From: Schmidtea nova
Lineage: Eukaryota
Direction of reading: 5' to 3'
DNA length: 64,000 nucleotides
Assembly: GCA_044892505.1 (NCBI GenBank)
Contig: CM097884.1
Coordinates: forward strand, 19,096,001-19,160,000
This document shows, piece by piece, positions 3,001 through 60,500 of the stretch; the stretch's first letter is position 1; each line of letters begins with the position of its first letter. The notes beneath the pieces are model-generated. The model saw only the letters and a list, made by a program, of their open reading frames with translations. It was not told the origin of the DNA and made no database searches. A program made the translations under genes and the position numbers.

Positions 3001-3107
3001 ATCATTCACACAATCACAATCATTAAATTCCATACATACATTGCTCAAAATATTACTTACATTTAATTTATTGCTCCAACCACTTCTCCTTGTGATGGAG
3101 CATATCC
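1..3107 (-). CDS. pol: pol polyprotein (PR-RT-RH-IN), entered by -1 frameshift; one 1-nt frameshift at about 2597; partial at window edge
   Basis: The -1 frame is open from the slippery site through the protease ORF 2590..3048. After a 1-nt shift in a T5 run (IIVF|YVTNGVIPKMIGG) the frame is open with no stop to position 1 (FNRMPFGIAAAPATFQ, VVYLDDILIF, FILDTDASF, HRTLCHAG, SPYHHSANGVIER). The ORF track omits it, presumably because it lacks a stop in the window. Confidence 0.9.
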
Positions 3108-4118
3108 GTTTGGGTCATCCTCTTTTATTGATCGTTCGTAGTCCTCTCCGATTATCGCAACGTGTCGATTTTTCTGGAATCGGTTCTCTGTCGACACATC
3201 ATAGCATTGGTACTTGAAATGGCCTCTCTTGTGGCAATGACTGCATTGTACATTTGGACATTCAGATCGTATGTGTCCTTCTTCTCTACATGCCCAACAC
3301 TTCCTGTGTCTTGCATCTGTTCTTGAATTTCTGTAGTTATCTCTATTTTGGTTATAATAATTGTTGTCGCTTCTTTGTTGTCGGTTATTGAATGTTCTAT
3401 CATTGTTGAATAGGGGTTTATATTCTTGTTTTCTAAATTTATCTTGATCTGGCTGATGCCACCTTTGTTGAAATTCGGATTCTTGCCTTGTACCGTCTCT
3501 GTATTTCATTTTTGAATCGAAACGATTCCCATTATTTCGTTGCCATGATTGACCAGATCTTATATTGGCTACATTTGCATATGTGTTCTTCTTTTGTATT
3601 ACGGCTACACTTTCTGCTTCGATTTCTTTCTTGACCTCATCGTTTCTCGTTATTCTTACTTTGATTTCTTCGAATGTAGACAAACCTTGCATCTTTAAAT
3701 CTTTCTTTAATTCTTGATCGTCTAATGCATTTTGAATCAGGAAAATTTTCAAATCTTCTTCTTGAAGTTTGTGACGTAATATATTCTTTGCTAATCTTTC
3801 AACTTTTCTAAAGAATTCGGCTGTTGTATCTTCTCCTCGGCGATAAGATAACGCCTTATTTAAGTCGTTTCCTAAATTACTCGGACTTGTAAACGCTGAT
3901 TGCATTCTCGTTTTATAATTTTCTTCGTGTTCTGTTTCCTCATATTTTCTTGTTGCTTCTATTGATAAAAAAGCTTTGACAAAAATACCTCTGTGTTCTT
4001 CGGCCGTCTGAGTCAATTCAAAAAATCTTTCTGTTTCTTCAATAAATTTGTCGATATCATTTCCTATCTCAAATATTTCTGGAGGTCTGATAAATTGTAA
4101 CATTGGCGTGGTCGCCAT
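3063..4118 (-). CDS. gag: gag with two CCHC zinc knuckles
   Basis: ORF 3063..4148 contains CWACREEGHIRSEC and CSHCHKRGHFKYQC. The first ATG at or after the LTR end is at 4118 (MATTPMLQF) and overlaps the PBS; the alternative start is 4103. Confidence 0.9.
   Translation of the reverse strand: MATTPMLQFIRPPEIFEIGNDIDKFIEETERFFELTQTAEEHRGIFVKAFLSIEATRKYEETEHEENYKTRMQSAFTSPSNLGNDLNKALSYRRGEDTTAEFFRKVERLAKNILRHKLQEEDLKIFLIQNALDDQELKKDLKMQGLSTFEEIKVRITRNDEVKKEIEAESVAVIQKKNTYANVANIRSGQSWQRNNGNRFDSKMKYRDGTRQESEFQQRWHQPDQDKFRKQEYKPLFNNDRTFNNRQQRSDNNYYNQNRDNYRNSRTDARHRKCWACREEGHIRSECPNVQCSHCHKRGHFKYQCYDVSTENRFQKNRHVAIIGEDYERSIKEDDPNGYAPSQGEVVGAIN
3072..3114 (-). promoter_or_regulatory. -1 ribosomal frameshift signal of Gypsy element 1
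   Basis: Slippery heptamer C CCA AAC (3114-3108) in the gag frame, 5-nt spacer, then hairpin TGCTCCA...TGGAGCA (3102-3072). The -1 frame is open from there into the protease. Confidence 0.8.
4105..4117 (-). promoter_or_regulatory. primer binding site TGGCGACCACGCC (probably tRNA-Arg)
   Basis: TGG-starting 13-mer directly after the LTR, identical to the 13-mer after the 5' LTR of element 2 (38603-38615). From memory, the first 11 nt complement the 3' end of a metazoan tRNA-Arg(UCG); not verified. Confidence 0.7.
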
Positions 4119-4349
4119 ATTAGGTTGATTATTAATTTTCTTATACATAAATTGAAAACACGCTTTCGTTCAAAAATATATATTATTAAAACAAATATTT
4201 TTCTTTTTTTTAATTATCTTGGAGAATATATATATTAATATAAATAATACTTTGAGCAATTTCAACATTCATACACAACATATACATACTGTTACACTCA
4301 TACTGATTTTTATAATATATAATTAATTTATCAATTTCATCTCACAACT
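4118..4349 (-). repeat. 5' LTR of Gypsy element 1 (about 230 bp)
   Basis: Begins AGTT at 4349, exactly where hAT transposase sequence resumes, and ends at the PBS. The partner LTR is outside the window, so the 3' boundary is inferred. Confidence 0.7.
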
Positions 4350-6467: not shown

Positions 6468-7135
6468 AAAATACCCATTCGAAATTGTTTGAAAAAATGA
6501 TGAATTTTGATGAACAAGGCATTATGGTCAATAATATTCACTCCATCATTTTGAATATTCTTAACATTATTTGTAAACCAATTTTCTATGAACTTATAAT
6601 TAAATCACAGTTATGTCCGCGTCATGTTGAGAGGTATTTATTATTTTATTTTCATTTCACTACCTTTGTCAAATGATTTTGAACACTCAAGAAAGCATTA
6701 CCAAGAATTTGTGATAAATATTAAATAATGGTCTCTAGTCGAAAAAGAAATTAAGATGTTATTAATGTTCATACTTGATATTTGTCTTATACCGTTAATA
6801 ATGACATGGTGAATAAAGAATTTAAATGTAGCTGGTAATTTAATATTTTAACTTGATATCCTATTTGATTCGTACCCTATTCAAATAAAATCATAGTACT
6901 CTAATGATAATTACCATAAGGAATTATATTGAGGCATCGACGATAAAAGGTAGGATTTTATGTTGATTGTATAATGAACTTTTGCAATAATTTTTAATAT
7001 TCCTATAATTTAAATGCAAAATTTATTATAGTATGTAAAATTTATTTATAAAATTTGATTGCTTTTTATTAATTTTTTTGTTTTTATTATGTTTTATTTA
7101 TTTAAAACTTTAATATATAATTATTCTTCTAACTG

Positions 7136-7262
7136 TCATAATTATCTTTTTGTTTCACCTTTGATCTTTTTTTATATTAATATCAATAATTCCCATAATG
7201 GTAAGACTATAGATCAAAATTTCTTTAAACAAGTACACAATATTTCGGCACAGCATTATCAA
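7136..7262 (-). mobile_element. Penelope pseudo-LTR/terminal fragment next to a gap
   Basis: Reverse complement matches 44852-44975 (ttgataa..gctgtgccgaaatattgtgt...gataattatga). Confidence 0.8.
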
Positions 7263-8165: not shown

Positions 8166-10047
8166 ATGAAGAGTCGGGGGGCAAAAAACTCGTCCACCTA
8201 CGGCGGACATTCAGGAGGTAAACTTACAAGCAACTGAAAGGAAAGAATTATTCGGTTTTGAGAAAAACCCCAGATATCGTAACATCAATAAAATTAACAC
8301 TAATCAACCAAATACTCCTTCAATACCAACATCAACATCAAATTCCCAATCATCTTCATTTGTCACATCTACTCCCATTGTCCCATCAAAATCAACTATC
8401 CTGTCAACTTCAACTGTCCCATTAACATCAACTATCCCATCAACATCAACTGTACCATCAACATCAACTATCCCATCAACATCAATTATCCCATCAACAT
8501 CAATTGTCCCGACATCCTCAAAAGTCCTATCAACTTCAAATGTCCCATCAACTTCAATTGCCCCATCAACTTCAATTGCCCCATCAACTTCAATTGATCC
8601 ATTAACATCAATTGTCCCATCAACATCAACATCAACTGACCCTTCAACATCTACTACTCCTACAACTTCTACTGCTCCTTCAACCTTAACTACTCCTTAT
8701 TATCTTCTCTTTCAACACTTATCTTCTTTATCTGCTCTCTCAACACCAACTGCACCTTCAACATCAAATACTCCCACAACGTCGAATACTCCTTCAACAT
8801 CTACTGTGCCTTCAACATCTACTGCTCCCTCAACCTCTACTGCTCCTTCAACATCAAGCGCTTCTTCAACATCAAATGCCCCTACATCCTCAGAAGATAC
8901 CTCAACACCAAAAAACACCTCAACACCAAATGCCCCTTCAACATCAAAAGCTCCTTCAACATCAAATACTTCTCCTACATCTAATGCTTCTCCTACATCT
9001 TATGCTTCTCCTACATCAAATGCTTCCTCAACATCAAATGCTTCTTCAACACCAAAGGCTCATCCAACTTCAATCACTCCTTCAACATCTACTGTGCCTA
9101 CAATATCTACTGCTCCCTCAACCTCTACTGCTCCCCCAACATCCACTAATCCTGCAACATCTACTAATCGCTCAACATATAAACAACCAAAAAATATCTT
9201 CATCTTCGGTTCTACACCCTCAAATCCTACAAATCTTTCATGTAACACTAATACCCACAAATACAACACCAGATTGAATACTAAAATTATCACTCTCCCA
9301 GATGAAGAACAGACCGCTTCCTATTACAGAACTTATAATCCAACACCCTCCGAAAAAAGAAAGCCATTAGAAATATTTAAAATCATCCATAAAACTCTAA
9401 TTTTCTGGGATATCTTTAACAAAAATAAAAAACTCACCACTAAGGATATTTACTTGATGAATGAACCAACAATTGAAGACCTGATAAATCACTATATCAT
9501 TTTTTTCTCTTCCCCTCCATTTCACCTAGATAAATCAAAAACATTCCAAGTTATTCATAATGATATATACAACTGGCTCCCTGCCCTAGAAAAATGTGGA
9601 ATCACAGACTACCTTATGCTTTGCAACTTATCAACAAACGACATGAATAAACTTAATTTTGAATACGACAATGAAAGTACCCAATCACAAAAAGACCTCA
9701 GTGAATTTGCAGAAAAATCCATGTTCAAAACTACCCAAAAACCTAAAGAGAAAATTTATGCATCAGTTAGCATTATAGACCTTATGTATGACATCTCCAA
9801 ATTGAAAAATATAATGATTGATAATGAAGAAGAAAGACTTTCAATATCATACTGCAAACCTTCCACTTGGTTCCCTCTCTTATGCATCTACGGTGACGAC
9901 TACCAAGAGCTCCTGGAAATATCAAATTCTGAACTCATTAAAATGCTGATTAAAGCCCAAACCTTTCATAGAGAAAGTCATTTTGTATCAATAGACCCTA
10001 CAGAAGATGACCTAGATAAAATTATGAGTGCATACTCCCTGCTCTAA
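8166..10047 (+). CDS. orphan intronless ORF: Pro/Ser/Thr 6-aa (18-nt) repeats plus about 270-aa unknown C-terminal domain
   Basis: Frame 1 is open from 8170 to TAA at 10045-10047 (about 625 codons; the ORF track starts only at GTG 8806). The nearest ATG (8166) needs a 1-nt deletion in the G6/A6 run to join the frame (MKSRGQKTRPP...). Strong A/C strand bias. Confidence 0.6.
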
Positions 10048-37390: not shown

Positions 37391-38656
37391 GTTTTTTCCG
37401 TCTTCTCTCAATGTAGTATATTTTTCAGGAACATTGTATCTATCTGCCATATCGCTGTGAGCCATTCTGAAATCATGGCTGTTTTCGGTGTAATCTCTTC
37501 TTTCAGATTTGGAATCTTCTTCTTCTATGCAGGCTATTCTTTGATATCGACGGGGCACCTCTTTCCGTAACGAAAAACAATCTCGGAATCCGTGTCCCTC
37601 TTTACCACATATCAGGCATTTATTTCCCAGTGGGCACTCATATCTTTTGTGTCCCCTTTCGCCACAGCAAAAACAATCACCTACTGTTAATTTTGGAGCC
37701 GGTGCTTGTGGTAGTCCTCTACTTTCGTTATAAATCTTTCTTGCTATATTCTTCATGGAAATTGTTGGTAGTTTCCTTTCTGAGCAATCTTGGATTCTAA
37801 CATTTCTCAAAAATTGTTCTTTTGGGAATTGTTCTCGTCGACCGCGGTTATTTTCTTCGAATTGTATCGGATGTTCATCTCTTCTTGGTCTGTGATGACT
37901 AAATGGGTCTTCTGATTGTCTTCTTTGTGATGGTGTAGGTCTGGTATCTTGAGTATTCTGTTGAATTCTCATTTGCCCTCCATCAATCACGCTGGCATAT
38001 GTTCTTTTACCAATTGATTTAATAAATTCAGTTTTATTGCTTCCCTTTTGGTTACTCTCAAAAATCTTCGCCATTGATCTCGTTTCTTCAATTTTTGTTT
38101 CTGGTTTTGTCAATAATATCTCCTTCAATCTCGCATCGCGTGCTTTATTTGCGATGAGATCTTGAACAATATCTTCTTCTGATCATCCTGAATTTATGAC
38201 TTCAGCTAAAGCTTTCCTTAATCGAATCTCGAAAGCTGCAAAACGTTCATCATCTTCCTGTTCCAGAACTGCCAATTCTCTGATTTTGTCAGTTATTGAC
38301 TTCGTAATTGTGAAAGTATTTAGGAACCAAGTTTTGGCTTTCACGTCTGTTGTTTCTGTTTCTCTGACGTTTCCCCACAATGTCTTAGCTTCTGCCACTA
38401 ATAACACATCGAAGGTGCTTGTCAATCGCTGTCCATTTGTCAACAGCCATTCTTCTATGTCTCTGATCCATTCTTCTGCTTCTTTCGATCCTCGTCCATC
38501 ATATCGTCTGATATTCAGCGTGAGCATATCTTGGCATGATTTTGGTAGGCATTCCATTAACGTCTTTGTTGATTTCGAAACTGCATTGACATTCTGATTT
38601 TCGGCGTGGTCGCCAGTTAAATCAAACTCGGTTTTAAAAGACTGAACTTCCTTCAT
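37343..38656 (-). pseudogene. gag: gag of element 2, one in-frame TGA at 38183-38185
   Basis: ORFs 38183..38656 and 37343..38128 are in the same frame; knuckles CFCCGERGHKRYEC and CLICGKEGHGFRDC. Confidence 0.9.
37353..37397 (-). promoter_or_regulatory. -1 ribosomal frameshift signal of element 2
   Basis: A AAA AAC (37397-37391) in the gag frame, 6-nt spacer, hairpin GACTCCA...TGGAGTC. The -1 frame reads without a stop into ATG 37295 of pol. Confidence 0.85.
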
Positions 38657-38736
38657 AGATTTATTTCAATTAAAATTTTATAAAAAGTGCCAAAATACTC
38701 AATTATTAAAACACCAGTTAATTTAAATATCCAACT
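38615..38736 (-). repeat. 5' LTR of element 2 (122 bp, AGTT...AACT)
   Basis: Direct repeat of 34104-34224; its last T overlaps the PBS TGGCGACCACGCC. Confidence 0.92.
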
Positions 38737-42124: not shown

Positions 42125-42190
<66 letters not shown>

Positions 42191-45100
42191 CAATAATTCT
42201 CATAATGACTATAGATCAAAATTTTTTTTATAAACAATAACACAATATTTCGGCACAGCCTTTATCAAGTGTGTATTTCTATCGTTATATTTACTTAATC
42301 CTAAATAGTAGCCTTAATTATTTTTTTAATATTTTATAATGATTTTATTGGATGAAAAAATTTATTTTATTTTAATTTTTTTGTGCGAATTGAATGTTGA
42401 TGGACGGTTTGTATTTTTTTATGAAAAAAGTCTCGGAAGCTAATCTTTGTAATGAATTTTTGAATCCCTCTTGTAGGATCTGGCATTTTGTTTCTTCTAT
42501 AGATGGAGTTGTTTTATGTACTTTTTCCCAGTGTTCGTAATAATTACTGGTTTTGATTTTAGTATGTTCATTAAGTCGGGTGCGAAAAGTTCTATGTGTT
42601 TCTCCTATGTAAGTAGCGTCACATTTTTGACAAGAAAGTTTATATACTATATTTTTGGAAAAGCAAAAGCATCGGGTTGTGGAACGACAAAGACATTTAT
42701 GTTTGGAGATGTTGGAAATTGGTGGCTTTCGGAGTTGTGATTTTAACGGTGCGGAGGTTATGAACGTTGGACGGATGTGGATAGGCAAATCTGTTTGATT
42801 AAAAATGTTGGTGATTTTGTTGGCTGTAGTGTCATTTAGGAAAGGTAATCTTAGATATGTTGTGTGTTTGTTATTGTTATTGTGTTTCTGGCGTTTTCTA
42901 TTGTTGCGTTTATTGTGGTATGGTTCGTTAAGGAAGTGTTTCTTTACAAAGTCTTCAGGGTATCCATTTTGGAGGAATCGTATTTTGAAGTTTTCTAGTG
43001 TTTCTTGTATTTTGTTTGCGTCTGAACAGTTTCTTATGGCTCTTTTTCTTTCTCCTATTAGTAATGCGATTTTGCGTTGAAGTGGAACGTGGCTTTTCCA
43101 TGGGAGGATATGACCGCTATGTAAACCTTTAGAATATAGCTCGGTGTTTGCATTTAGTGTATCTTGGCCTTTTGTAAAACTTACCATGGTATCTAAAAAC
43201 GGTATTTTACCTTCTGTGTTCGGTGTTTCAAAAGTAAATTGTATGTTGGTGTTAGTAGAATTTGCGTGTGATAGGATTTGATTGAGAGGGATTGTGGAGA
43301 CTATGAAGATGTCGTCGATGTATCGTTTCCAGAAAAGTATTTTGTCCCCAAAAAAAGATATGATCTTAGATTCTATAAAGTTCATGTAGAAGATGGCTAA
43401 GATGGGAGAAAGGTTATTACCCATGGCTAATCCATGAATTTGTTTGAATGGTTTTTCTTTAATTATGACAGTATCTGAATTTATTGCTAATTTTAGAAGT
43501 TCTATAAAGTCTTGTTTAGTTAAGTCTGCGAGGTCAGTGTTGGCTTTATGAGTTTCAAAGAAAGAAGCTGCGATATCGAAAATGTTATTCTCTCCGTGAA
43601 GAGGAATAGATCCGTAAAGATTGGAAACGTCAAGCGATCCCCAGAAGTACTGTTGTCCTGAGTTTAACGGAAGAGACGTATTTGTAATTTCGGAGACGAA
43701 TTCAGTTGTGTTTTTAAGATGAGAAGGAACCAAAGGCAAAAATGTTTTTAGAATTTCTGAAAGAACTTTAGAAAGTGTTGTGGAAGGAGTGTCAACTGCG
43801 GATACAAGAGGTCTACCTTTTAAAGGACTTTTGTGATCTTTAGGTAACATAGTCATATTACTAGGTAAAGGCTCACTGCAGTTGCATTTTAAAAGTAAAT
43901 CTTTGATTTGAAGGTTAATTTGTTTATTTGCAAGTGTTGAAAGTTTCTTATTGTATAAAATCTGAGTCGATGCAGGTAAGATTATTTTGTTTATCGGTTC
44001 ATAGTTCGAGAGATGTTCTTCAAATAGAGTATTGTATTGTTCTGTGTCAAGAGCAATTAGTCGATTTGTTTTATCTGATGGAAGAATTGTGAAGTCTTTG
44101 GAATTCTTAATTTTCTTTATGTTTGAAGTGAAGGAATTTTGTGTTGAGCAATGTTTTTCAAGAAAGATAATTTGTTCTCTGACTAAAGTTTTGACTTTAG
44201 TTTCTAAACAGCTGAGTTTTTCTTCAAGTTCAGTCGAAAAGACATGCATATTTGGATATGTTCTACGATTTGGATCCAGAAGATGATTGTGCTTTTCAGC
44301 TAAACTTGAAGATTTGGTGGATGAAATTGGTTTTAGATGGTATCCTATTTGTCTTCTTAGGCTTATAAGAGAGGCGTTAGTGATGATTTCGGCTTTTTCT
44401 AAATCTTTCTGGTTAGGTGGAGGAACAAAAGATGGTCCTAGAGCGAGGATGTTTTCTTGTGTTTTTGAAAAAATGTGATTAGATTTGTTTGTAAATGGAA
44501 GAATTGAATTTGAGTGTGAGTTAGTGTCTTTACTAAAATCTTTACTAAAAATCTTTACTAAAATCAAAACCAGTAATTATTACGAACACTGGGAAAAAGT
44601 ACATAAAACAACTCCATCTATAGAAGAAACAAAATGCCAGATCCTACAAGAGGGATTCAAAAATTCATTACAAAGATTAGCTTCCGAGACTTTTTTCATA
44701 AAAAAATACAAACCGTCCATCAACATTCAATTCGCACAAAAAAATTAAAATAAAATAAATTTTTTCATCCAATAAAATCATTATAAAATATTAAAAAAAT
44801 AATTAAGGCTACTATTTAGGATTAAGTAAATATAACGATAGAAATACACACTTGATAAAGGCTGTGCCGAAATATTGTGTTATTGTTTATAAAAAAAATT
44901 TTGATCTATAGTCATTATGAGAATTATTGATAATAATAATAAAAAAAGATCAAAGGTGAAAAAAGATAATTATGATAGTATATTGGCGGACGCCCATCAC
45001 CGAGTAGATCTATCGTTATTTTATAGTCTCAAAATCATCAAAATCAAATCACACTTACATTTTTTAAAAGAATGCAAAAGAAGAAACATCATTCCCGTGG

Positions 45101-48100
45101 GCCTGACTGTTACCAACAAACTGGAATCAACCTATCCATCTTTACAAGCATTGAAGCTTAAAGAAAAACAGGAAAAAGAATGGCTTAAGCTTAGCATTTC
45201 AGCTTGTTACAAAAAGCTAAACGAATTTACTAGTTTTCCTTGTGCTCCTCTTACTTGTGAAGATAATACTTGTTGCCAGAATTTCTCCAAAAATCTCGAC
45301 ATTCGCAAGCATAAAAAATTAGAAAAGCTACTTTCAACAAATTCAAACAACACTAAAGACACTAACTCACACTCAAATTCAATTCTTCCATTTACAAACA
45401 AATCTAATCACATTTTTTCAAAAACACAAGAAAATATCCTCGCTCTAGGACCATCTTTTGTTCCTCCATCTAACCAGAAAGATTTAGAAAAAGCCGAAAT
45501 CATCACTAACGCCTCTCTTATAAGCCTAAGAAGACAAATAGGATACCATCTAAAACCAATTTCATCCACCAAATCTTCAAGTTTAGCTGAAAAGCACAAT
45601 CATCTTCTGGATCCAAATCGTAGAACATATCCAAATATGCCTGTCTTTTCGACTGAACTTGAAGAAAAACTCAGCTGTTTAGAAACTAAAGTCAAAACTT
45701 TAGTCAGAGAACAAATTATCTTTCTTGAAAAACATTGCTCAACACAAAATTCCTTCACTTCAAACATAAAGAAAATTAAGAATTCCAAAGACTTCACAAT
45801 TCTTCCATCAGATAAAACAAATCGACTAATTTCTCTTGACACAGAACAATACAATACTCTATTTGAAGAACATCTCTCGAACTATGAACCGATAAACAAA
45901 ATAATCTTACCTGCATCGACTCAGATTTTATACAATAAGAAACTTTCAACACTTGCAAATAAACAAATTAACCTTCAAATCAAAGATTTACTTTTAAAAT
46001 GCAACTGCAGTGAGCCTTTACCTAGTAATATGACTATGTTACCTAAAGATCACAAAAGTCCTTTAAAAGGTAGACCTCTTGTATCTGCAGTTGACACTCC
46101 TTCCACAACACTTTCTAAAGTTCTTTCAGAAATTCTAAAAACACTTTTACCTTTGGTTCCTTCTCATCTTAAAAACACAACTGAATTCGTCTCCGAAATT
46201 ACAAATACGTCTCTTCCGTTAAACTCAGGACAACAGTACTTCTGGGGATCTCTTGACGTTTCCAATCTTTACGGATCTATTCCTCTTCACGGAGAGAATA
46301 ACATTTTCGATATCGCAGCTTCTTTCTTTGAAACTCATAAAGCCAATACTGACCTCGCAGACTTAACTAAACAAGACTTTATAGAACTTCTAAAATTAGC
46401 AATAAATTCAGATACTGTCATAATTAAAGAAAAACCATTCAAACAAATTCATGGATTAGCCATGGGTAATAACCTTTCTCCCATCTTAGCCATCTTCTAC
46501 ATGAACTTTATAGAATCTAAGATCATATCTTTTTTTGGGGACAAAATACTTTTCTGGAAACGATACATCGATGACATCTTCATAGTCTCCACAATCCCTC
46601 TCAATCAAATCCTATCACACGCAAATTCTACTAACACCAACATACAATTTACTTTTGAAACACCGAACACAGAAGGTAAAATACCGTTTTTAGATACCAT
46701 GGTAAGTTTTACAAAAGGCCAAGATACACTAAATGCAAACACCGAGCTATATTCTAAAGGTTTACATAGCGGTCATATCCTCCCATGGAAAAGCCACGTT
46801 CCACTTCAACGCAAAATCGCATTACTAATAGGAGAAAGAAAAAGAGCCATAAGAAACTGTTCAGACGCAAACAAAATACAAGAAACATTAGAAAACTTCA
46901 AAATACGATTCCTCCAAAATGGATACCCTGAAGACTTTGTAAAGAAACACTTCCTTAACGAACCATACCACAATAAACGCAACAATAGAAAACGCCAGAA
47001 ACACAATAACAATAACAAACACACAACATATCTAAGATTACCTTTCCTAAATGACACTACAGCCAACAAAATCACCAACATTTTTAATCAAACAGATTTG
47101 CCTATCCACATCCGTCCAACGTTCATAACCTCCGCACCGTTAAAATCACAACTCCGAAAGCCACCAATTTCCAACATCTCCAAACATAAATGTCTTTGTC
47201 GTTCCACAACCCGATGCTTTTGCTTTTCCAAAAATATAGTATATAAACTTTCTTGTCAAAAATGTGACGCTACTTACATAGGAGAAACACATAGAACTTT
47301 TCGCACCCGACTTAATGAACATACTAAAATCAAAACCAGTAATTATTACGAACACTGGGAAAAAGTACATAAAACAACTCCATCTATAGAAGAAACAAAA
47401 TGCCAGATCCTACAAGAGGGATTCAAAAATTCATTACAAAGATTAGCTTCCGAGACTTTTTTCATAAAAAAATACAAACCGTCCATCAACATTCAATTCG
47501 CACAAAAAAATTAAAATAAAATAAATTTTTTCATCCAATAAAATCATTATAAAATATTAAAAAAATAATTAAGGCTACTATTTAGGATTAAGTAAATATA
47601 ACGATAGAAATACACACTTGATAAAGGCTGTGCCGAAATATTGTGTTATTGTTTATAAAAAAAATTTTGATCTATAGTCATTATGAGAATTATTGATAAT
47701 AATAATAAAAAAAGATCAAAGGTNNNNNNNNNNNNNNNNNNNNNNNNNNNNNNNNNNNNNNNNNNNNNNNNNNNNNNNNNNNNNNNNNNNNNNNNNNNNN
47801 NNNNNNNNNNNNNNNNNNNNNNNNNNNNNNNNNNNNNNNNNNNNNNNNNNNNNNNNNNNNNNNNNNNNNNNNNNNNNTTTCATTAATTTTTTGCATTGCT
47901 AGTAAATTAATTATTATTTTATTNNNNNNNNNNNNNNNNNNNNNNNNNNNNNNNNNNNNNNNNNNNNNNNNNNNNNNNNNNNNNNNNNNNNNNNNNNNNN
48001 NNNNNNNNNNNNNNNNNNNNNNNNNNNNNNNNNNNNNNNNNNNNNNNNNNNNNNNNNNNNNNNNNNNNNNNNNNNNNNNNNNNNNNNNNNNNNNNNNNNN

Positions 48101-51100
48101 NNNNNNNNNNNNNNNNNNNNNNNNNNNNNNNNNNNNNNNNNNNNNNNNNNNNNNNNNNNNNNNNNNNNNNNNNNNNNNNNNNNNNNNNNNNNNNNNNNNN
48201 NNNNNNNNNNNNNNNNNNNNNNNNNNNNNNNNNNNNNNNNNNNNNNNNNNNNNNNNNNNNNNNNNNNNNNNNNNNNNNNNNNNNNNNNNNNNNNNNNNNN
48301 NNNNNNNNNNNNNNNNNNNNNNNNNNNNNNNNNNNNNNNNNNNNNNNNNNNNNNNNNTTTCATTAATTTTTTGCATTGCTAGTAAATTAATTATTATTTT
48401 ATTNNNNNNNNNNNNNNNNNNNNNNNNNNNNNNNNNNNNNNNNNNNNNNNNNNNNNNNNNNNNNNNNNNNNNNNNNNNNNNNNNNNNNNNNNNNNNNNNN
48501 NNNNNNNNNNNNNNNNNNNNNNNNNNNNNNNNNNNNNNNNNNNNNNNNNNNNNNNNNNNNNNNNNNNNNNNNNNNNNNNNNNNNNNNNNNNNNNNNNNNN
48601 NNNNNNNNNNNNNNNNNNNNNNNNNNNNNNNNNNNNNNNNNNNNNNNNNNNNNNNNNNNNNNNNNNNNNNNNNNNNNNNNNNNNNNNNNNNNNNNNNNNN
48701 NNNNNNNNNNNNNNNNNNNNNNNNNNNNNNNNNNNNNNNNNNNNNNNNNNNNNNNNNNNNNNNNNNNNNNNNNNNNNNNNNNNNNNNNNNNNNNNNNNNN
48801 NNNNNNGGATGACTTATTTGTTTTTAACAAGTAAAGCTTGTGATGCTTTGTGATACCCAGTGCAAATCCCCAATAGCAGACTAGTTTCGAGCATTTTGCT
48901 CTCATCAGTGCTATGCAGGAGACGCGAAAATTTCTCTCCGCGCCAGGCAAGTATAAAACAAAGTCGAAAGATTTTTGTTTTATACTATACCTGGTACACT
49001 GGATAAAACATCACTTGAATATGCAAGGTCCTACAGATAATCTGTAACTTGCAAACATGGCGTATGAATTTCATTTTCACCTCTGCGCACTAAAAGTGTT
49101 CAACAGAAACTTTTTGCAAGCGCACCCGACTGCCTTAGCTTCATTATTTCAATTTTCGCGTCTCCTGCATAGCACTGATGAGAGCAAAAAGCTCGAAACT
49201 AGTCTGCTATTGGGGATTTGCGCTGGGTATCACAAAAAATCACAAGCTTTCCTTATTAAAAACAAATAAGTCATCCGACAAATGTTTTTTTCAAAAGATA
49301 TTTCAAGTAATTTGCCTATCCACATCCGTTCAACGTTCATAACCTCCGCAGCGTTAAAATCACAACTCCGAAAGCCACCAATATCAAACATCTCCAAACA
49401 TAAATATCTTTGCCGTTCCACAACCCGATGCTTTTGCTTTTCAAAAAAATATAGTTTATAAACTTTCTTGTCAAAAATGTGATGCTACTTACATAGGAGA
49501 AACACAGAAATTTTCGCATCCGATTTAATGAGCACACTAAAAACAAAACCAGCAATTATAACGAACACTGGAAGAAAGTACATAAAATAACTCTATCTAT
49601 AGATTAACAAAATGACAGATTCTACAAAGAGGGATTCAAAAATTCATTACAAAGATTAGCTTCCGAGACATTTTACATTAAAAAAATACAAACCACTCAT
49701 CAACATTCAATTCGCACAAAAATATCATGTTTAAAAAGAAAATTAAAATAAATTTATTTTCATCCAATAAAATCATTATAAAATATTAAAAAAATAATTA
49801 AGGCTACTATTTAGGATTATGTTAATATAACGATTGTATTACACATTTGATAAAGGCTGTGCCGAAATATTGTGTTCTTATTTAAAGAAATTTTGATCCA
49901 TAGTCTTACCATTATGGAAATTATTGATATTAATATTATTAATATTTTTATTATTATTATTAATTAATATTGTTAATATNNNNNNNNNNNNNNNNNNNNN
50001 NNNNNNNNNNNNNNNNNNNNNNNNNNNNNNNNNNNNNNNNNNNNNNNNNNNNNNNNNNNNNNNNNNNNNNNNNNNNNNNNNNNNNNNNNNNNNNNNNNNN
50101 NNNNNNNNNNNNNNNNNNNNNNNNNNNNNNNNNNNNNNNNNNNNNNNNNNNNNNNNNNNNNNNNNNNNNNNNNNNNNNNNNNNNNNNNNNNNNNNNNNNN
50201 NNNNNNNNNNNNNNNNNNNNNNNNNNNNNNNNNNNNNNNNNNNNNNNNNNNNNNNNNNNNNNNNNNNNNNNNNNNNNNNNNNNNNNNNNNNNNNNNNNNN
50301 NNNNNNNNNNNNNNNNNNNNNNNNNNNNNNNNNNNNNNNNNNNNNNNNNNNNNNNNNNNNNNNNNNNNNNNNNNNNNNNNNNNNNNNNNNNNNNNNNNNN
50401 NNNNNNNNNNNNNNNNNNNNNNNNNNNNNNNNNNNNNNNNGTTGATTAATTAAAATTTGTAATTTCTTTAAATTATTTATATTAAATTTTTCTTAAATAA
50501 TAATTATTGGAAATCATTTTATTGGGACCTAACCAATCAACAATTTGTGCCTGACTTATAGATCAATGATAAAGTGAGGAGTGCAGAATGTGTCAACAAT
50601 TGTTGCGAATGTATTACGCTGTGTTATTTAATCAGGTAGAGTCATGATTATCGCGTTAATATCGTGATCAGTCGATCTCAAATATGCTCAAATATTTGTT
50701 TAATCAACCGGGAAATTTCTGCCAATAAAAATTTTTTTGTTTGTAAATCGTGACAATTCCATTTCATAGTTATATAATTGCTAGTTCAAGGAAATTTATA
50801 TATTTATCGATCTTTCTCTGTTCTTTTATGCTATAAAATGCCGTTTATACTATTAATTTACATGATTATTCTTCATTATTAGTTCTTTAGTCTATCATTA
50901 ATTCTAGGTCCATTTGAAATATATCTTTGGAAATGAGTTGAAATGAAATATTTTTTTAATCTTGATTATACAGCATATATTTCTCGATTACCAATTCTTT
51001 AGAAAATTTATTCTTTTTTGTATTTTTCTTCAAGTCGCAATATTACAATTTATTTCTGTAACATGCGCTTTATTAGTGTTTGTTTTATTTTATTTTCTCC

Positions 51101-51262: not shown

Positions 51263-54200
51263 TAATACCTTGCTTTGCGACAATAACTGCTTTCCATAAA
51301 AATCGCAATTCGAAATAAACTTATGGAATTGTACTAAAATACGAAAGAATCCTGAATTTAAAAATCTGTTTACCCAAAAACAAGGTAATTACAAGTTATT
51401 AATACAAGTTTATTTATTAATATATAGCAAAATAAAACGTAACAATTCTTTAAAATACAAAATTCAATTTGTTTATCAATAATATTCTAGGAACTATACA
51501 TAAACATTAATTATCAAGAATCAGAATCTAACACTTGTGGCTGCAAATATCTTTCTAGCGTTTGCTGGATTGTTATTTTTTTTTCGTTCTACACAACTGA
51601 TAAAGGCTGTGCCGATATATTGTGTATTTATTTAAAGAAATTTTGATCTATAGTCATCCATTATGGGAATTAGTGATATTATTATTATTAATATTATACA
51701 AAAAAAAGCTTGTGATTTTTTTTGTGATACCCAGTGCAAATCCCCAATAGCAGACTAGTTTCGAGCTTTTGGCTCTCATCAGTGCTATGCAGGAGACGCG
51801 AAAATTTCTCTCCGCGCCAGGCAAGTATAAAACAAAGTCGAAAGATTTGTGTTATATACTATACCTGGTACACTGGATAAAACATCACTTGAATATGCAA
51901 GGTCCTACAGATAATCTGTAACTTGCAAACATGGCGTATGAATTTCATTTTCACCTCTGCGCACTAAAAGTGTTCAACAGAAACTGTTTGCAAGCGCACC
52001 CGACTGCCTTAGCTTCATTATTTCAATTTCTTGAAATATCTTTTGAAAAAAACACATTTGTCGGATGACTTATTTGTTTTTAACAAGTAAAGCTTGTGAT
52101 GCTTTGTGATACCCAGTGCAAATCCCCAATAGCAGACTAGTTTCGAGCTTTTGGCTCTCATCAGTGCTATCTGTATTATCTGTAGTATTATCTGTAGGAC
52201 CTTGCATATTCAAGTGATGTTTTATCCAGTGTACCAGGTATAGTATATAACAAAAATCTTTCGACTTTGTTTTAGACTTACCTGGTGCGGAGATAAATTT
52301 TCGCGTCTCCTGCATAGCACTGATGAGAGCCAAAAGGTCGAAACTAGTCTGCTATTGGGGATTTGCACTGGGTATCACAAAAATAATCACAAGCTTTTTT
52401 TTGTTTAAAACAAATAAGTCATCCGACAAATGTTTTTTTCAATTATTAATATTGTTTTTATTATCTTTGTAGCAACTTATATCATCAATATATATTGAAC
52501 AACTTTTGTACTTCTTTTTTTCGTCAAGGTCATTTTGTCCAAAAATCGAAGTGACTTCATTAATAACAGCCATAGCTTTACTAATTTGTTTTAGAGGTTA
52601 ATATTTTTGGCTCAGGAGTTTTTTTGGATTTTCCACTAAGTTGTCTTTGTATTACAGTTCAAGATCTAGTTCCATCAAATCGTCATGTCATCATTTTGTG
52701 TTAAAATAAACTTGTTAACATCGACTTCATTCATTCCTTCAAATTCATTTGCTTCTGTACAGGTATCATCAATATAACCGATTTCATTTGAGTTAGTTTT
52801 TTTCGAACACACTCAGGCCAGATCTTCCTCCAAACACGATTCATGCAGGATGTTTATACGTCTTTCCATGATTCTGCAATATTATTCACTACATACATTA
52901 CATTATATTTTTTTACCAAAAACTGGAATTTCACTTTTTGCTAACAAAATATTATACAAAATTAATATTAACACTGTAACTGATATTTTCTTTAAAGAAA
53001 ATTTTTCTTTCAATTTTTTGCGTCGGAATATGAAAAGACGCAAATTGAAACGTCGCAAATATCTCTCTCTCTCATGCAAAGTTAATTATAAATAAATAAT
53101 ATAATTATAGAAGTGCATTGTAAAAATTAAAGATATTGGTTTGAAATTATATTAAAGTGCAGTTTTTTATAAAATTAAACTAAATTTTGTGTTAATTATT
53201 TCTATTGTCAAAAGATTTTAAGTTTACTGACAAAAACTAAATTATACTGACCAAATATCTAAAATGTAAGTTATGACTGACCCTTAATTGTTATTACTGA
53301 TCAAAATATTACTCTGTACTGGTAAAATATTTAATAAAATACTGACCGTTTATTATAAAAATTACTGACCAAATAAAAAGAAATGATTATAAAATAAATC
53401 TTTAAAAAATATTATTAATACGATATTTGAGAGAGATGCCTTTAACATATTTCAACAATATCTCGTCTAATGATTGATATACCGGCGCTCCTTTATCCTT
53501 CTAAATTTGTAAGCCTTTCTAGTTAATGTTGAGAAGCCTAGGTCACATAAATATTATGTCAAAAATGGTAATAAAACTTTGAGTACTCTTGTGAATAGAG
53601 TGAATTTTCGACTTGGATAGAAATCCAAAATTCCTCAAGAGTTTTTTCTGAAAATTTTATTTTTATAGTACGATCCGTTGACAAGGAATTTAAATCTTGT
53701 TCTTCCTGTAACAAAAATCCTCAACTCGATATATCAGTTATTATGCTAAATGGATTTCGCATCTAATCATAATTATTTATCTTCAATAAAAGTATCTAGC
53801 AATTTTTTCCAAAATTAATAAATGCTTTAGATTGGTAAATATACTGATAATAATTCCCTTAATATCTTTATAATTAAGCGAAGGTTTGGTTATTAGTGAA
53901 TTTGCTGGTAAATAACAATGATCTAGCTCTAGAGTTTCCATTTCCCGTTCGTTTCTGTAACCATTCAATCCCGGGAGTTGTTTATAATAATTGTTTTTAT
54001 AATAAATAAACAAAAATAAAATTGTATTTTTATCACATGAATTCGTCAAAACTTAAAATATCATTTAATAATGTCGAAAAGTTTAATAATTAATCGTTTT
54101 TTTCCATATTTAATAAAATATGTTTTTACGAAATATGAAAAATTTAGTGAATAATCTTAATGCGTGGTCTTCTTTTCGTAGGAAATGATCCCACAATTGA

Positions 54201-57460: not shown

Positions 57461-57520
<60 letters not shown>

Positions 57521-60500
57521 TCATAATTATCTTTTATCACCTTTGATCTTTTTTTATTATTATTATCAATAATTCTCATAATGCTGACTATAGATCAAAA
57601 ATTTTTTTATAAACAATAACACAATATTTCGGCACAGCCTTTATCAAGCCGCCCCGGACATCTAAAATTAGCAATAAATTCAGATACTGTCATAATTAAA
57701 GAAAAACCATTCAAACAAATTCATGGATTAGCCATGGGTAATAACCTTTCTCCCATCTTAGCCATCTTCTACATGAACTTTATAGAATCTAAGATCCTAT
57801 CTTTTTTTGGGGACAAAATACTTTTCTGGAAACGATACATCGACGACATCTTCATAGTCTCCACAATCCCTCTCAATCAAATCTTATCACACGCAAATTC
57901 TACTAACACTAGCATACAATTTACTTTTGAAACATCGAACACAGAAAGTAAAATACCGTTTTTAGATACCATGGTAAGTTTCACAAAAGGCCAAGATACA
58001 CTAAATGCAAACACCGAGCTATATTCTAAAAGTTTACATAGTGGTCATATCCTCCCATGGAAAAGCCACGTTCCACTTCAACGCAAAATCGCATTACTAA
58101 TAGGAGAAAGAAAAAGAGCCATAAGAAACTGTTCAGGCGCAAACAAAATACAAGAAACATTAGAAAACTTCAAAATACGATTCCTCCAAAATGGACACCC
58201 TGAAGAATTTGTAAAGAAATACTTCCTTAACGAACCATACCACAATAAACGCAACAATATGAAACGCCAGAAACACAATAACAATACAAAAACACAACAT
58301 ATCTAAGATTACCTTTCCTAAATAACACTACAGCCAACAAAATCACCAACATTTTTAATCAAACAGATTTGCCTATCCACATCCGTCCAACGTTCATAAC
58401 CTCCGCACCGTTAAAATCACAACTCCGAAAGCCACCAATTTCCAACATCTCCAAACATAAATGTCTTTGCCGTTCCACAACCCGATGCTTTTGCTTTTCC
58501 AAAAATATAGTATATCAACTTTCTTGTCAAAAATGTGACGCTACTTACATAGGAGAAACACAGAACTTTTCGCACCCGACTTAATGAACACACTAAAAAC
58601 AAAACCAGTAATTATTATGAACACTGGAAGAAAGTACATAAAACAACTCCATCTATAGAAGAAACAAAATGCCAGATTCTACCAGAGGGATTCAAAAATT
58701 CATTACAAAGATTAGCTTCCGAGACTTTTTACATAAAAAAATACAAACCATCCATCAACATTCAATTCGTACAAAAAAATTAAAATAAATTTTTTCATCC
58801 AATAAAATCTTTATAAAATATAAAAAAATAATTAAGGTTACTATTTAGGATTAAGTTAATATAACGATAGAAATACACACTTGATAAAGGCTGTGCCTAA
58901 ATATTGTGGTATTGTTTAAAAAAAATTTTGATCTATAGTCATCATTATGAGAATTATTGATAATAATAATAAAAAAAGATCAAAGGTGAAAAAAGATAAT
59001 TATGATTATATATATATATATATATTGGAGAAAGAATGAGTCTTTAGTGTCTGACTCAAAAGAATAATTTCTTTCATTTTCCTAATCACGCACGCAAGCT
59101 TTAAATTTCATGTTATTATAGCCTTTCTGCTCTTCTTTTCTTATTAAAAAAAAATTACGTAAATTATTTTCACCATTACCGCATATTAAAAATTTATCTC
59201 TTAGTAAGAATTCTTATCATTGATAACCAAATTATCCTCAAGAAAATCATTGACCTGATTTATTCGCTATTTCTTGGTTCTTCTCTGAATATTATATTCA
59301 ATTGCGTGATTAATCTCAAATTCATCTGTCAAATGAATTATCTTGTAAAAGTTCTCTTCTATAATTGACATAGCATCCTAATTGATTGGCATTAGCTCCA
59401 TTTGTGTCTCTTTAAAATGTTTCTAGATTACTCATTGTGGCTTCTATATAACTGCTTTTCTTTATTACAATAATTTCTTCAGTTTTTTCTTAGGATTTCG
59501 CATTTTCGTAAATTTTGGCAAAGTTATTACGCTTTTATGGTGCCATTATTGTTTTTGTTGTTATTGCGTCTTTTAATCTTTTCTCTTTGACTCGTCCGAT
59601 TATAATTTCTCATATAATCTCAGATGGTTATAATCTCATACAACTTCATCCACTAGTTTTATTTTCATTTTGTCTGATTGTAGTAAGTCCTTTAATCTTT
59701 ACCAACATGGTTAACTTTATAGTAAATGTTTCGGTAAACCATTTTTTTATCAGTTGTTTTCACACTTTTAAAAATTTTCTGTGACTGTTTCATCGCGAGG
59801 TTAAAATCGAATGCTTCTGTTCATTTTTCGTCATTCTAGAAATCTAATCATCGATAGCTTGTATCCATTTTTCAGCTTCTTTGGATTATCTGCCGTTATA
59901 TCTCCTTATTCCTATATATAAGAGTTCCTGAGCTCTTTTTGGTTGAGTGTCTCTTGCTGATCTTTTTCCATCTCGTCAAGTCGTCATTGTGTGTAAATTT
60001 ACGGCGTGGTTGCAAGTTAAGACACTTGAATTCATCTGTAAAATTGATTAAATATTGAAATCTGAAACCAATTAAATTGCATCCAAACACTTTGTTTGGA
60101 TTATCTATTAAAAATAAAATAGATAGTTCTCTAGATGAAACATCATAACTTATAATAATAAGATACGTGATGCGTTTACAAAGTTCCTGGTCCCAAGTAT
60201 AGAATTAAAAAATAAATACTTAGTCATTTATAATTTTAAAGTTGTCATATAAGTATAAGTGAAGAAAATTAAATTTGTTTTACTCGGTCATTGTTCTTTA
60301 TCATAATAACGCTAGAGTTTTGAAAAATTGATAAAGTCATGATTTCACCAATCAAATATTGAAGTGTGATTTAATAATTTATCAATTGTGAAAAATTGGG
60401 TAAATGCATTCGAATGTAGTCGCATATTAGTCTTTGATAACTACAGAGAAAGTGGGTCACATGAAATTTGTGACAATATATGCGAAAAGTTGCTAAAAAA

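Follow-up and report, generated by a model that had tools for sequence, protein, structure and literature searches.

The window analysed here, the 64,000-nt stretch of Schmidtea nova contig CM097884.1 from 19,096,001 to 19,160,000 of the forward strand (assembly GCA_044892505.1), carries a Penelope-like element (PLE) with a minimal hammerhead motif in its pseudo-long terminal repeats (pseudo-LTRs). The ends of the insertions of this element suggest that in vivo a minority of its RNAs is cut by the hammerhead, which is of a known kind, probably to make a unit-length circle from which long copies would be taken. We give this reading a probability of about 0.6. Positions below are those of the window or are numbered relative to the predicted cut, with +1 at 44877 and 0 at the nucleotide U17 (44876).

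The 40-mer at 44844-44883 (+) is identical at 47610-47649, at a distance of +2766, and at 42237-42276 on the minus strand, confirming the preliminary description of this DNA, in which the motif was said to recur 2766 bp later. Its sequence, its folds and its match to published motifs indicate a minimal type I hammerhead. Helix I pairs ACAC (44848-51) with GTGT (44877-80); the core from U3 to A9 (44852-58) contains the U3-A8 pair and is followed by an extra A (44859); a 3-bp helix II, GGC/GCC, occupies 44860-68; GAA follows at 44869-71; and ATAT (44872-75; AUAU in the RNA) replaces helix III before U17. The predicted scissile bond, U17|G1.1, lies at 44876..44877 (+), with a minor pile-up of insertion 5′ ends at 44877-44878. 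The ATG of the open reading frame (ORF), at 44917, is 40 nt downstream of this bond, so the 40-nt spacing given earlier is correct from the predicted cut and not from the start of the motif. Nine copies had been counted in the window; a search allowing ≤8 mismatches to the 40-mer recovered eight of them within 0-3 nt of the earlier coordinates, and the ninth (7240, minus) is degenerate and abuts an N stretch. Only four are intact (19478 and 42237, minus; 44844 and 47610, plus). The copy at 49839 has U at 2.1, that at 51589 has C3/A8 and GAUA, and that at 58873 has G12U; the minus copy at 57616 lacks the 5′ strand of helix I, and in that at 7240 the start of helix II is altered. In the 1.25-Gb genome the exact 24-mer core was found 43,020 times and the reversed pattern, which served as the control, 0 times, indicating that the motif is not a product of chance. 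Folds of 40 and 51 nt yield helices I and II, with a helix II pair probability of 0.97-0.98 in the 40-mer (ViennaRNA). Folding energy did not distinguish the motif from shuffled sequences (z -0.7 to -1.0), and Rfam gave no match at the motif places at E≤10.

The motif belongs to an already described class, the minimal hammerhead ribozymes (min-HHRs) of metazoan PLEs described by Cervera & de la Pena (2014, PMC4209133). According to the accessible part of that paper, min-HHRs lack helix III and have a base between positions 9 and 10.1, a G10.1-C11.1 pair and a palindromic 15.2-16.2; U3-A8 is included, with about 1,300 S. mansoni matches to a dedicated descriptor. Its Fig. S3 lists the core UUGAUAAA as S. 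mansoni 3 and, in separate rows, a GGC/GCC 3-bp helix II (C. briggsae), 3-nt loops, and U-A with U17 (Latimeria 1, C. remanei). Natural U3-A8 covariation is also described, and in vitro activity cited, in the accessible part of PMC3088659. In keeping with the class core (C3-G8 or U3-A8 in UGAN.A, then GAAA and UH), the element studied here has UUGAUAA...GAAA-UA-U-U at 44852-44876, the unpaired A44859 between 9 and 10.1 beside the pair G44860-C44868, an AUAU palindrome without helix III (ACGU and AUAU in relatives), and one sense-strand hammerhead in each pseudo-LTR. The hammerhead reading is supported by its fit to the published min-HHR, by covariation of the stems in four relatives and by the pile-up of copies at the predicted cut. 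The proposal that the combination of features is unusual is not supported, because PMC4209133 already contains U3-A8, the additional base, the lack of helix III, AUU and the 3-bp helix II, and the claim of novelty fails.

Relatives of the element were compared at metagenome loci. Four of the 14 loci have a sense-strand hammerhead 3′ of the ORF match, with 0.13 expected by shuffling; among the remaining ten, several do not include the 3′ end of the ORF. Two of the four relatives have C3-G8 with GCC/GGC and ACGU, and two have U3-A8 with GGCC/GGCC and AUAU. The base pairs were taken from the descriptor output because MAFFT misaligned the hammerheads. Compensatory changes were observed at 3-8, 10.2-11.2, 15.2-16.2 and in helix I, whose sequence differs in each group with pairing retained. 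Covariation of the stems, proposed earlier as a check, was therefore seen in four loci of a descriptor-found, five-member set.

Insertion ends were mapped from 117 exact downstream anchors, 106 without duplicates. They comprise 99 of 100 listed anchors, 12 unlisted neighbours in the loci examined and 6 from 200 kb taken blind, and the bulk of the sample lies in the initial 3 Mb of a single contig. The main pile-up of 5′ ends (41/106) lay at -37 to -30, that is, at 44839..44846 (+). Another 14 ends fell at -29 to -20, 29 between -19 and +23, 3 at -60 to -38 and 19 further upstream. Exact counts along the element, which are affected by subfamily variants, were 9,904 (-204 to -185), 10,102 (-69 to -52), 43,020 (core), 47,092 (+23 to +37) and 1,041 (+110 to +128), and the drop from 43,020 to 10,102 spans 44839..44846. 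Penelope stubs also lie inside larger tandem or segmental repeats (C1:3.07-3.15 Mb, C3:20.05-20.09 Mb, C1:9.06-9.08 Mb) with dozens of identical junctions, and raw counts are therefore inflated.

Most copies are stubs of 90-140 nt, arranged in head-to-head pairs and ending at 44839-44846. The 3′ ends of copies lie at about +55 to +67 or +100 to +108, usually in (AAT)n or (AT)n. The 3′-end histogram points to a putative inner priming site at 44931..44943 (+; GATAATAATAATA), and the histogram together with tail pairing to a putative outer site at 44976..44984 (+), in the tail. Among 48 short pairs, duplicates kept, the tail was present on exactly one arm in 46, on neither in 2 and on both in 0, and the two arms agreed in subfamily. 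An inverted junction near 44842 was also present in contigs from three of four sequencing runs of one study, a kind of data blind to RNA ends; three of the four runs have what we take to be Nextera-type adapter ends. It is very probable that the RNA starts near A44840, that a single RNA is primed inside the ORF start by each strand of the cut target, and that reverse transcription runs off the uncut 5′ end. Double priming on one RNA with run-off near 44840 is the simplest reading, and it fits the two internal start sites reported in the accessible part of the study of PAc, the Poseidon element of Anolis carolinensis (Frangieh et al., 2024, PMC11167929). Most insertions were probably copied from uncut RNA. 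An AG before 44842, acting as a splice or trans-splice acceptor, was discarded as the cause of the main pile-up: many ends keep the A or G of this AG, the junctions have no common leader, and other subfamilies are without that AG. One master short element as the source of the stubs was also rejected, as junctions and flanks vary. Simple snap-back from the tail arm is less likely, though possible: among 53 pairs this arm was longer in 26, shorter in 17 and equal in 8.

A second pile-up was found at the predicted cut. With an inverted partner arm and the same mismatch rule required at +1, -2 and +3, pairs starting at +1 filled 223 rows, versus 50 at -2 and 37 at +3. Read by eye, the two controls came to ~30 and 31 events, and the first 100 of the 223 rows at +1 to 95 events. 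Copies beginning at +1 after two mismatching bases numbered 249, versus 87 at -2, with mismatch rules that are not alike. Inspection of 30 loci at +1 showed that 27 were not explained by microhomology in helix I and 3 were joined through it. In the remaining +1 loci, any partner arm that was visible also terminates no more than a few bases from the cut, and the GTGTT start is repeated in some of them. An earlier junction list, dominated by one satellite at C1:3.07-3.15 Mb, was replaced by means of a tighter pattern, giving an unselected list of 1,060 rows whose first 100 rows represent 62 events by eye. The longest arm started at +4, the floor of the pattern, in 11 of these events, at +3 in 3, at +2 in 18, at +1 in 17, at 0 or +1 in 3, at 0 in 3, at -1 in 2, at -2 in 2, at -3 in 1 and at -4/-5 in 2; the gap limit of the pattern thins the classes beyond about -3. 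The +1/+2 class, counting the 0-or-+1 events, thus makes up 38/62. The anchor sample (n=106) has four ends at +2 and none at +1. By scaling, the cut-site class probably amounts to ~400-650 events, or 2-4% of short insertions. These results make it likely that the templates behind the pile-up at 44877-44878, a minority of the RNAs, had been cut by the ribozyme in vivo; the chief competing explanation of this edge is a minor transcription start.

Long copies behave differently from the stubs at the main pile-up. The long-copy set was made of 60 regions from the first 100 places matching +110 to +128, mostly the 5′-most unit of each array, and contains 63 copies of the ORF start. Twelve of these end 3′ of +2, none at 0 to +2, two at -13/-19, one at the region edge and two at -31/-32, and 46 pass -38. 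Stops at the main pile-up were therefore found in 2/48 long copies versus 41/63 in the anchor sample, and stops at the cut (0 to +2) in 0/51. That long copies run past both sites speaks against the enzyme being blocked by sequence or fold. It also speaks against a linear RNA starting at 44840 as the usual template of full copies, and would favour an endless template of unit length, which may be the 2766-nt unit in circular form.

The arrays were examined in 15 multi-unit loci, picked for being arrays. Units differed on average at 1.6 positions within a locus versus 10.7 between loci, and every array locus had 1-9 private variants common to all its units. Where array-wide private substitutions overlapped the inverted arm (9 loci), 16/16 were present there. 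Single-unit loci share private variants in part, as expected from ageing, and all 21 loci together give 52/65; the arms of the window insertion itself differ by about 11 substitutions. Terminal segments mostly carry the variants of the inner units. Since inverted arms share array-private variants in most loci, most arrays probably went from monomer to multimer at insertion. For this step a circle made by the ribozyme would be the most economical candidate, with strand transfer and DNA events as competitors. Unit homogeneity within arrays was not accepted as sole proof of rolling-circle copying.

These observations can be arranged into a model. A TATA-like TATTTAG (44813..44819, +), also present in the subfamily copy at 49310-49938, lies 27 nt upstream of the putative start, and three AATAAA hexamers (47515..47542, +), possible polyadenylation signals, lie just past the stop codon and ~100 nt before the cut of the 3′ hammerhead. 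RNA would start near 44840 behind the TATA-like box; the two strands of the target would prime at the ORF start on one RNA, and the enzyme would reach the uncut 5′ end. Some templates would have been cut by the ribozyme at 44876|44877, giving stubs that begin at 44877-44878. Most mRNAs would end at the AATAAA cluster, before the second hammerhead, so that only read-through RNAs would hold two hammerheads and could cut as dimers. Such a read-through RNA would cleave as a dimer or with the help of the element's protein; release of a 2766-nt unit RNA by cleavage at both hammerheads, as the preliminary description had it, is plausible. The cut unit would then be ligated to a 2766-nt circle, and rolling reverse transcription would rebuild promoter-bearing partial tandems. 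For read-through dimer cleavage, ligation and rolling reverse transcription as the source of long copies, we put the chances at a little under even. Somewhat more tentative is a scheme in which the hammerhead acts as a replication switch among three templates: uncut RNA from 44840 (~3/4 of copies), cut RNA from 44877 (2-4%) and the ligated 2766-nt circle (long copies, ~1/5). If true, only read-through RNAs with two hammerheads would be cut and circularised, and rolling copying would restore the promoter that a linear template always loses.

Several points weigh against cutting in vivo followed by circle formation. The start, the cut and the circle are all deduced from DNA copies. The excess at +1 is based on two control positions and a list read by eye, the pile-up is divided between +1 and +2, and a G at +1 after T is also compatible with a minor transcription start. 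A second family with a canonical hammerhead (+1 = U) had 3/10 events at +1/+2, which is a weak test. The covariation set has only five members and was found by a descriptor that requires pairing. The best fold of the 111-nt context is a different hairpin, and ViennaRNA does not favour a dimer with two hammerheads, which scores -5.4 kcal/mol against -18.9 kcal/mol for a competing fold. Two of the 15 arrays do not fit pure rolling-circle copying; the variants of the array at C1:100.71 Mb are nested in the manner of unequal crossing-over, and the array at C1:76.9 Mb has a tail arm without an insertion common to its three inner units. Moreover, the accessible parts of the two key papers report low min-HHR cleavage in vitro (PMC4209133), and a PAc ribozyme dispensable for insertion in vitro with no RNA reads at the cut (PMC11167929).

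The best-surviving alternative, which we regard as rather unlikely, is that the ribozyme cuts occasionally and long copies arise by strand transfer, in retroviral style, on a linear RNA redundant at both ends (-36 to +101). Strand transfer yields seamless multimers without a pile-up and could account for the array at C1:76.9 Mb, in which the terminal tail is unlike the inner units; junctions with reiterated template ends also indicate that the enzyme or a repair step does re-anneal. However, transfer must fail in ~65% of first passes but only 4% of later ones, so that two RNA populations are required, and at most loci the terminal segments have private variants in common with the inner ones. 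It is more doubtful still that the motif is conserved but nearly silent, the +1/+2 class being a minor transcription start or an exonuclease pause and the tandems DNA events (unequal crossing-over, DNA circles, long array read-through). Transcription generally starts at a pyrimidine-purine step, and T|G at +1 fits this rule. One array does have a crossing-over pattern, and the ribozyme is dispensable in vitro (PMC11167929, accessible part). On the other hand, T|G at +3 and T|A at -2 are no worse by this rule, yet starts there are about 6-7 times less frequent, the peak sits on the bond predicted from structure, the catalytic core covaries across families, and late DNA expansion would not put 16/16 shared private substitutions into inverted arms. 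A block of reverse transcriptase, or guided trimming of cDNA, by the hammerhead fold or local sequence is highly improbable as the cause of both pile-ups: both do sit at motif edges and 3/30 of the +1 loci are joined via helix-I microhomology, but 46/48 long cDNAs cross the main pile-up site and 0/51 stop at the cut, which largely refutes it, the enzyme should stop 3′ of a helix and not after reading it, and folding of the cDNA has little stability (-2.6 kcal/mol, z about -0.5 to -0.8).

The locus itself is a typical Penelope insertion, composed of an inverted truncated arm, a truncated upstream unit, a full unit and a 3′ pseudo-LTR. The inverted arm (42175..44532, -) is 5′-truncated and tail-less, belongs to the same insertion, contains the hammerhead at 42237-42276 and is 99.5% identical to 45354-47711. 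The 5′-truncated upstream unit forms the 5′ pseudo-LTR (44556..44876, +), with 44556-44957 100% identical to 47322-47723, and the 3′ pseudo-LTR (47322..47723, +), with the second hammerhead at 47610-47649, runs into N at its end. At the arm junction (44528..44566) a 12-bp unit is reiterated about three times. Short reiterated template ends are frequent at arm junctions (L031, L053, L083 and the window junction), for example an 11-nt unit present twice, and come from repeated re-annealing by reverse transcriptase or by polymerase-theta-type repair. The single intact ORF (44917..47514, +) encodes an 865-aa protein with a reverse transcriptase (RVT_1, E 1.3e-07), a Cys linker and, by motif alignment, a C-terminal GIY-YIG-type endonuclease. 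Its IVY..CxxC..YIG motif aligns with relatives, 2/26 of which match PF01541; the 865-aa protein itself had no match to Pfam GIY-YIG at E≤0.01. Reverse transcriptase and C-terminal GIY-YIG endonuclease in one ORF, together with a pseudo-LTR partial tandem, an inverted 5′-truncated arm and a one-sided tail, are the marks of an endonuclease-bearing (EN+) PLE. For a 267-aa part of the protein, 144/144 scored genomic matches were 100% identical, indicating that the family is very young.

Other copies in the window were located by the copy search. A short head-to-head stub pair lies at 19418..19580, its minus arm beginning at element position 44843. At 57513..59013 a minus stub from 44851 is joined to a plus arm from 46386 and both seem to reach the tail; a G+C-rich 9-nt insert joins these arms, making the locus an exception to the one-tail rule and perhaps two events. 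An older 5′-truncated copy of a related subfamily (88%) lies at 49310..49938 (+), an old degenerate stub from the base of helix I (81%) at 51590..51687 (+), and a degenerate stub beside an N stretch (85%) at 7132..7262 (-).

Two further hammerhead families are present. The second spans 48807-49312 and 51685-52445, and its hammerhead, a canonical type I form with C3-G8, a 4-bp helix II and an ACUAGU palindrome, occurs at 48908 (-), 49175 (+), 51782 (-), ~52140 (-) and ~52320 (+). This family is inserted as inverted arms, has Rfam scores below gathering and resembles a short circularly permuted non-coding unit (retrozyme-like), with one copy inside a run of Penelope fragments. The third (6-bp helix II, AUAUAU palindrome) was found at 29379-29450 (-), at about 20274-20504 and at C1:208942; the window copy has U3 with G8, and the C1 copy C3-G8. 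The window also contains Gypsy-type LTR retrotransposon ORFs in several frames (34234-38665, -; protease, reverse transcriptase, RNase H, integrase), a pogo/Tc5-type DDE transposase ORF (13310-14485, -), a fragmented hAT transposase (23667-26198, -), and a near-perfect 130-bp palindrome (15098-15227), probably a miniature inverted-repeat transposable element, with an Rfam MIR8742 match below the gathering score. At 8170-10047 (+) lies an open frame of 625 codons that contains a long repeat rich in Ser/Thr/Pro and has no Pfam match, and at 3063-4169 (-) a 368-codon frame with a zinc knuckle.

The motif itself is ordinary. Of interest are the population-level footprint that insertions leave at the cut and the absence of a stop in long copies. 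Insertion ends could be read as RNA ends at single-base resolution because the family is young and has tens of thousands of copies, and such end counting is repeatable in any genome with a young family. With about 200 independent insertions at the predicted bond and no stop in long copies, the circle hypothesis becomes specifically testable at known coordinates, and the cut-site footprint would support the idea that Penelope elements are copied from RNA circles. A literature search, which left most subscription papers outside, gave no report of insertion-end footprints at a cut or of a missing stop in long copies.

The element was compared with four known systems through the accessible parts of the respective papers. 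Like the min-HHRs of PMC4209133, it has one hammerhead per pseudo-LTR, many solo and opposite-strand copies and common core features. Its exact motif combination is absent from the legible rows of Fig. S3, its copies are far more numerous (43,020 exact) and its family is very homogeneous. PMC4209133 proposes cutting and circles, giving in its accessible part no in vivo evidence; here, in contrast, the insertion ends bear on both. According to the PAc study (PMC11167929), priming takes place at two internal sites, both strands are extended and cleavage is assisted by protein. Both elements have two adjacent internal start sites that define a tail, AT-rich targets, extension of both strands and uncut RNA as the main template. 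The PAc core is C3-G8 and overlaps the start codon, whereas here the cut lies before the ATG; one priming site per arm and a minor class from the cut are further differences. The EN+ Cys-linker PLEs (Neptune, Nematis and Hydra clades; Craig et al., 2021, PMC8557442; Arkhipova, 2013, PMC3846280) likewise have reverse transcriptase and C-terminal endonuclease in one ORF, partial tandems, an inverted 5′-truncated arm, a one-sided tail and microsatellite targets. The DKT and CxCX5C linker of the Hydra clade are matched here by PSDKT and CLCRSTTRC. That clade is described as having no CCHH motif in its endonuclease, whereas the present protein has CQKC between IVY and YIG, with histidines downstream; the Neptune/Nematis linker is CX2-5CxxC, compared with CxC-x5-CxC here and CxxCxxC in many aligned relatives. 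Finally, metazoan non-LTR retrozymes (PMC7229834; bioRxiv 10.64898/2026.07.22.740005), for which circles (PMC7229834) and RtcB ligation have been demonstrated, also carry type I hammerheads in tandem units. These are 170-400-nt non-coding units with canonical hammerheads, whereas the unit described here is 2766 nt long and autonomous, with an 865-aa ORF.

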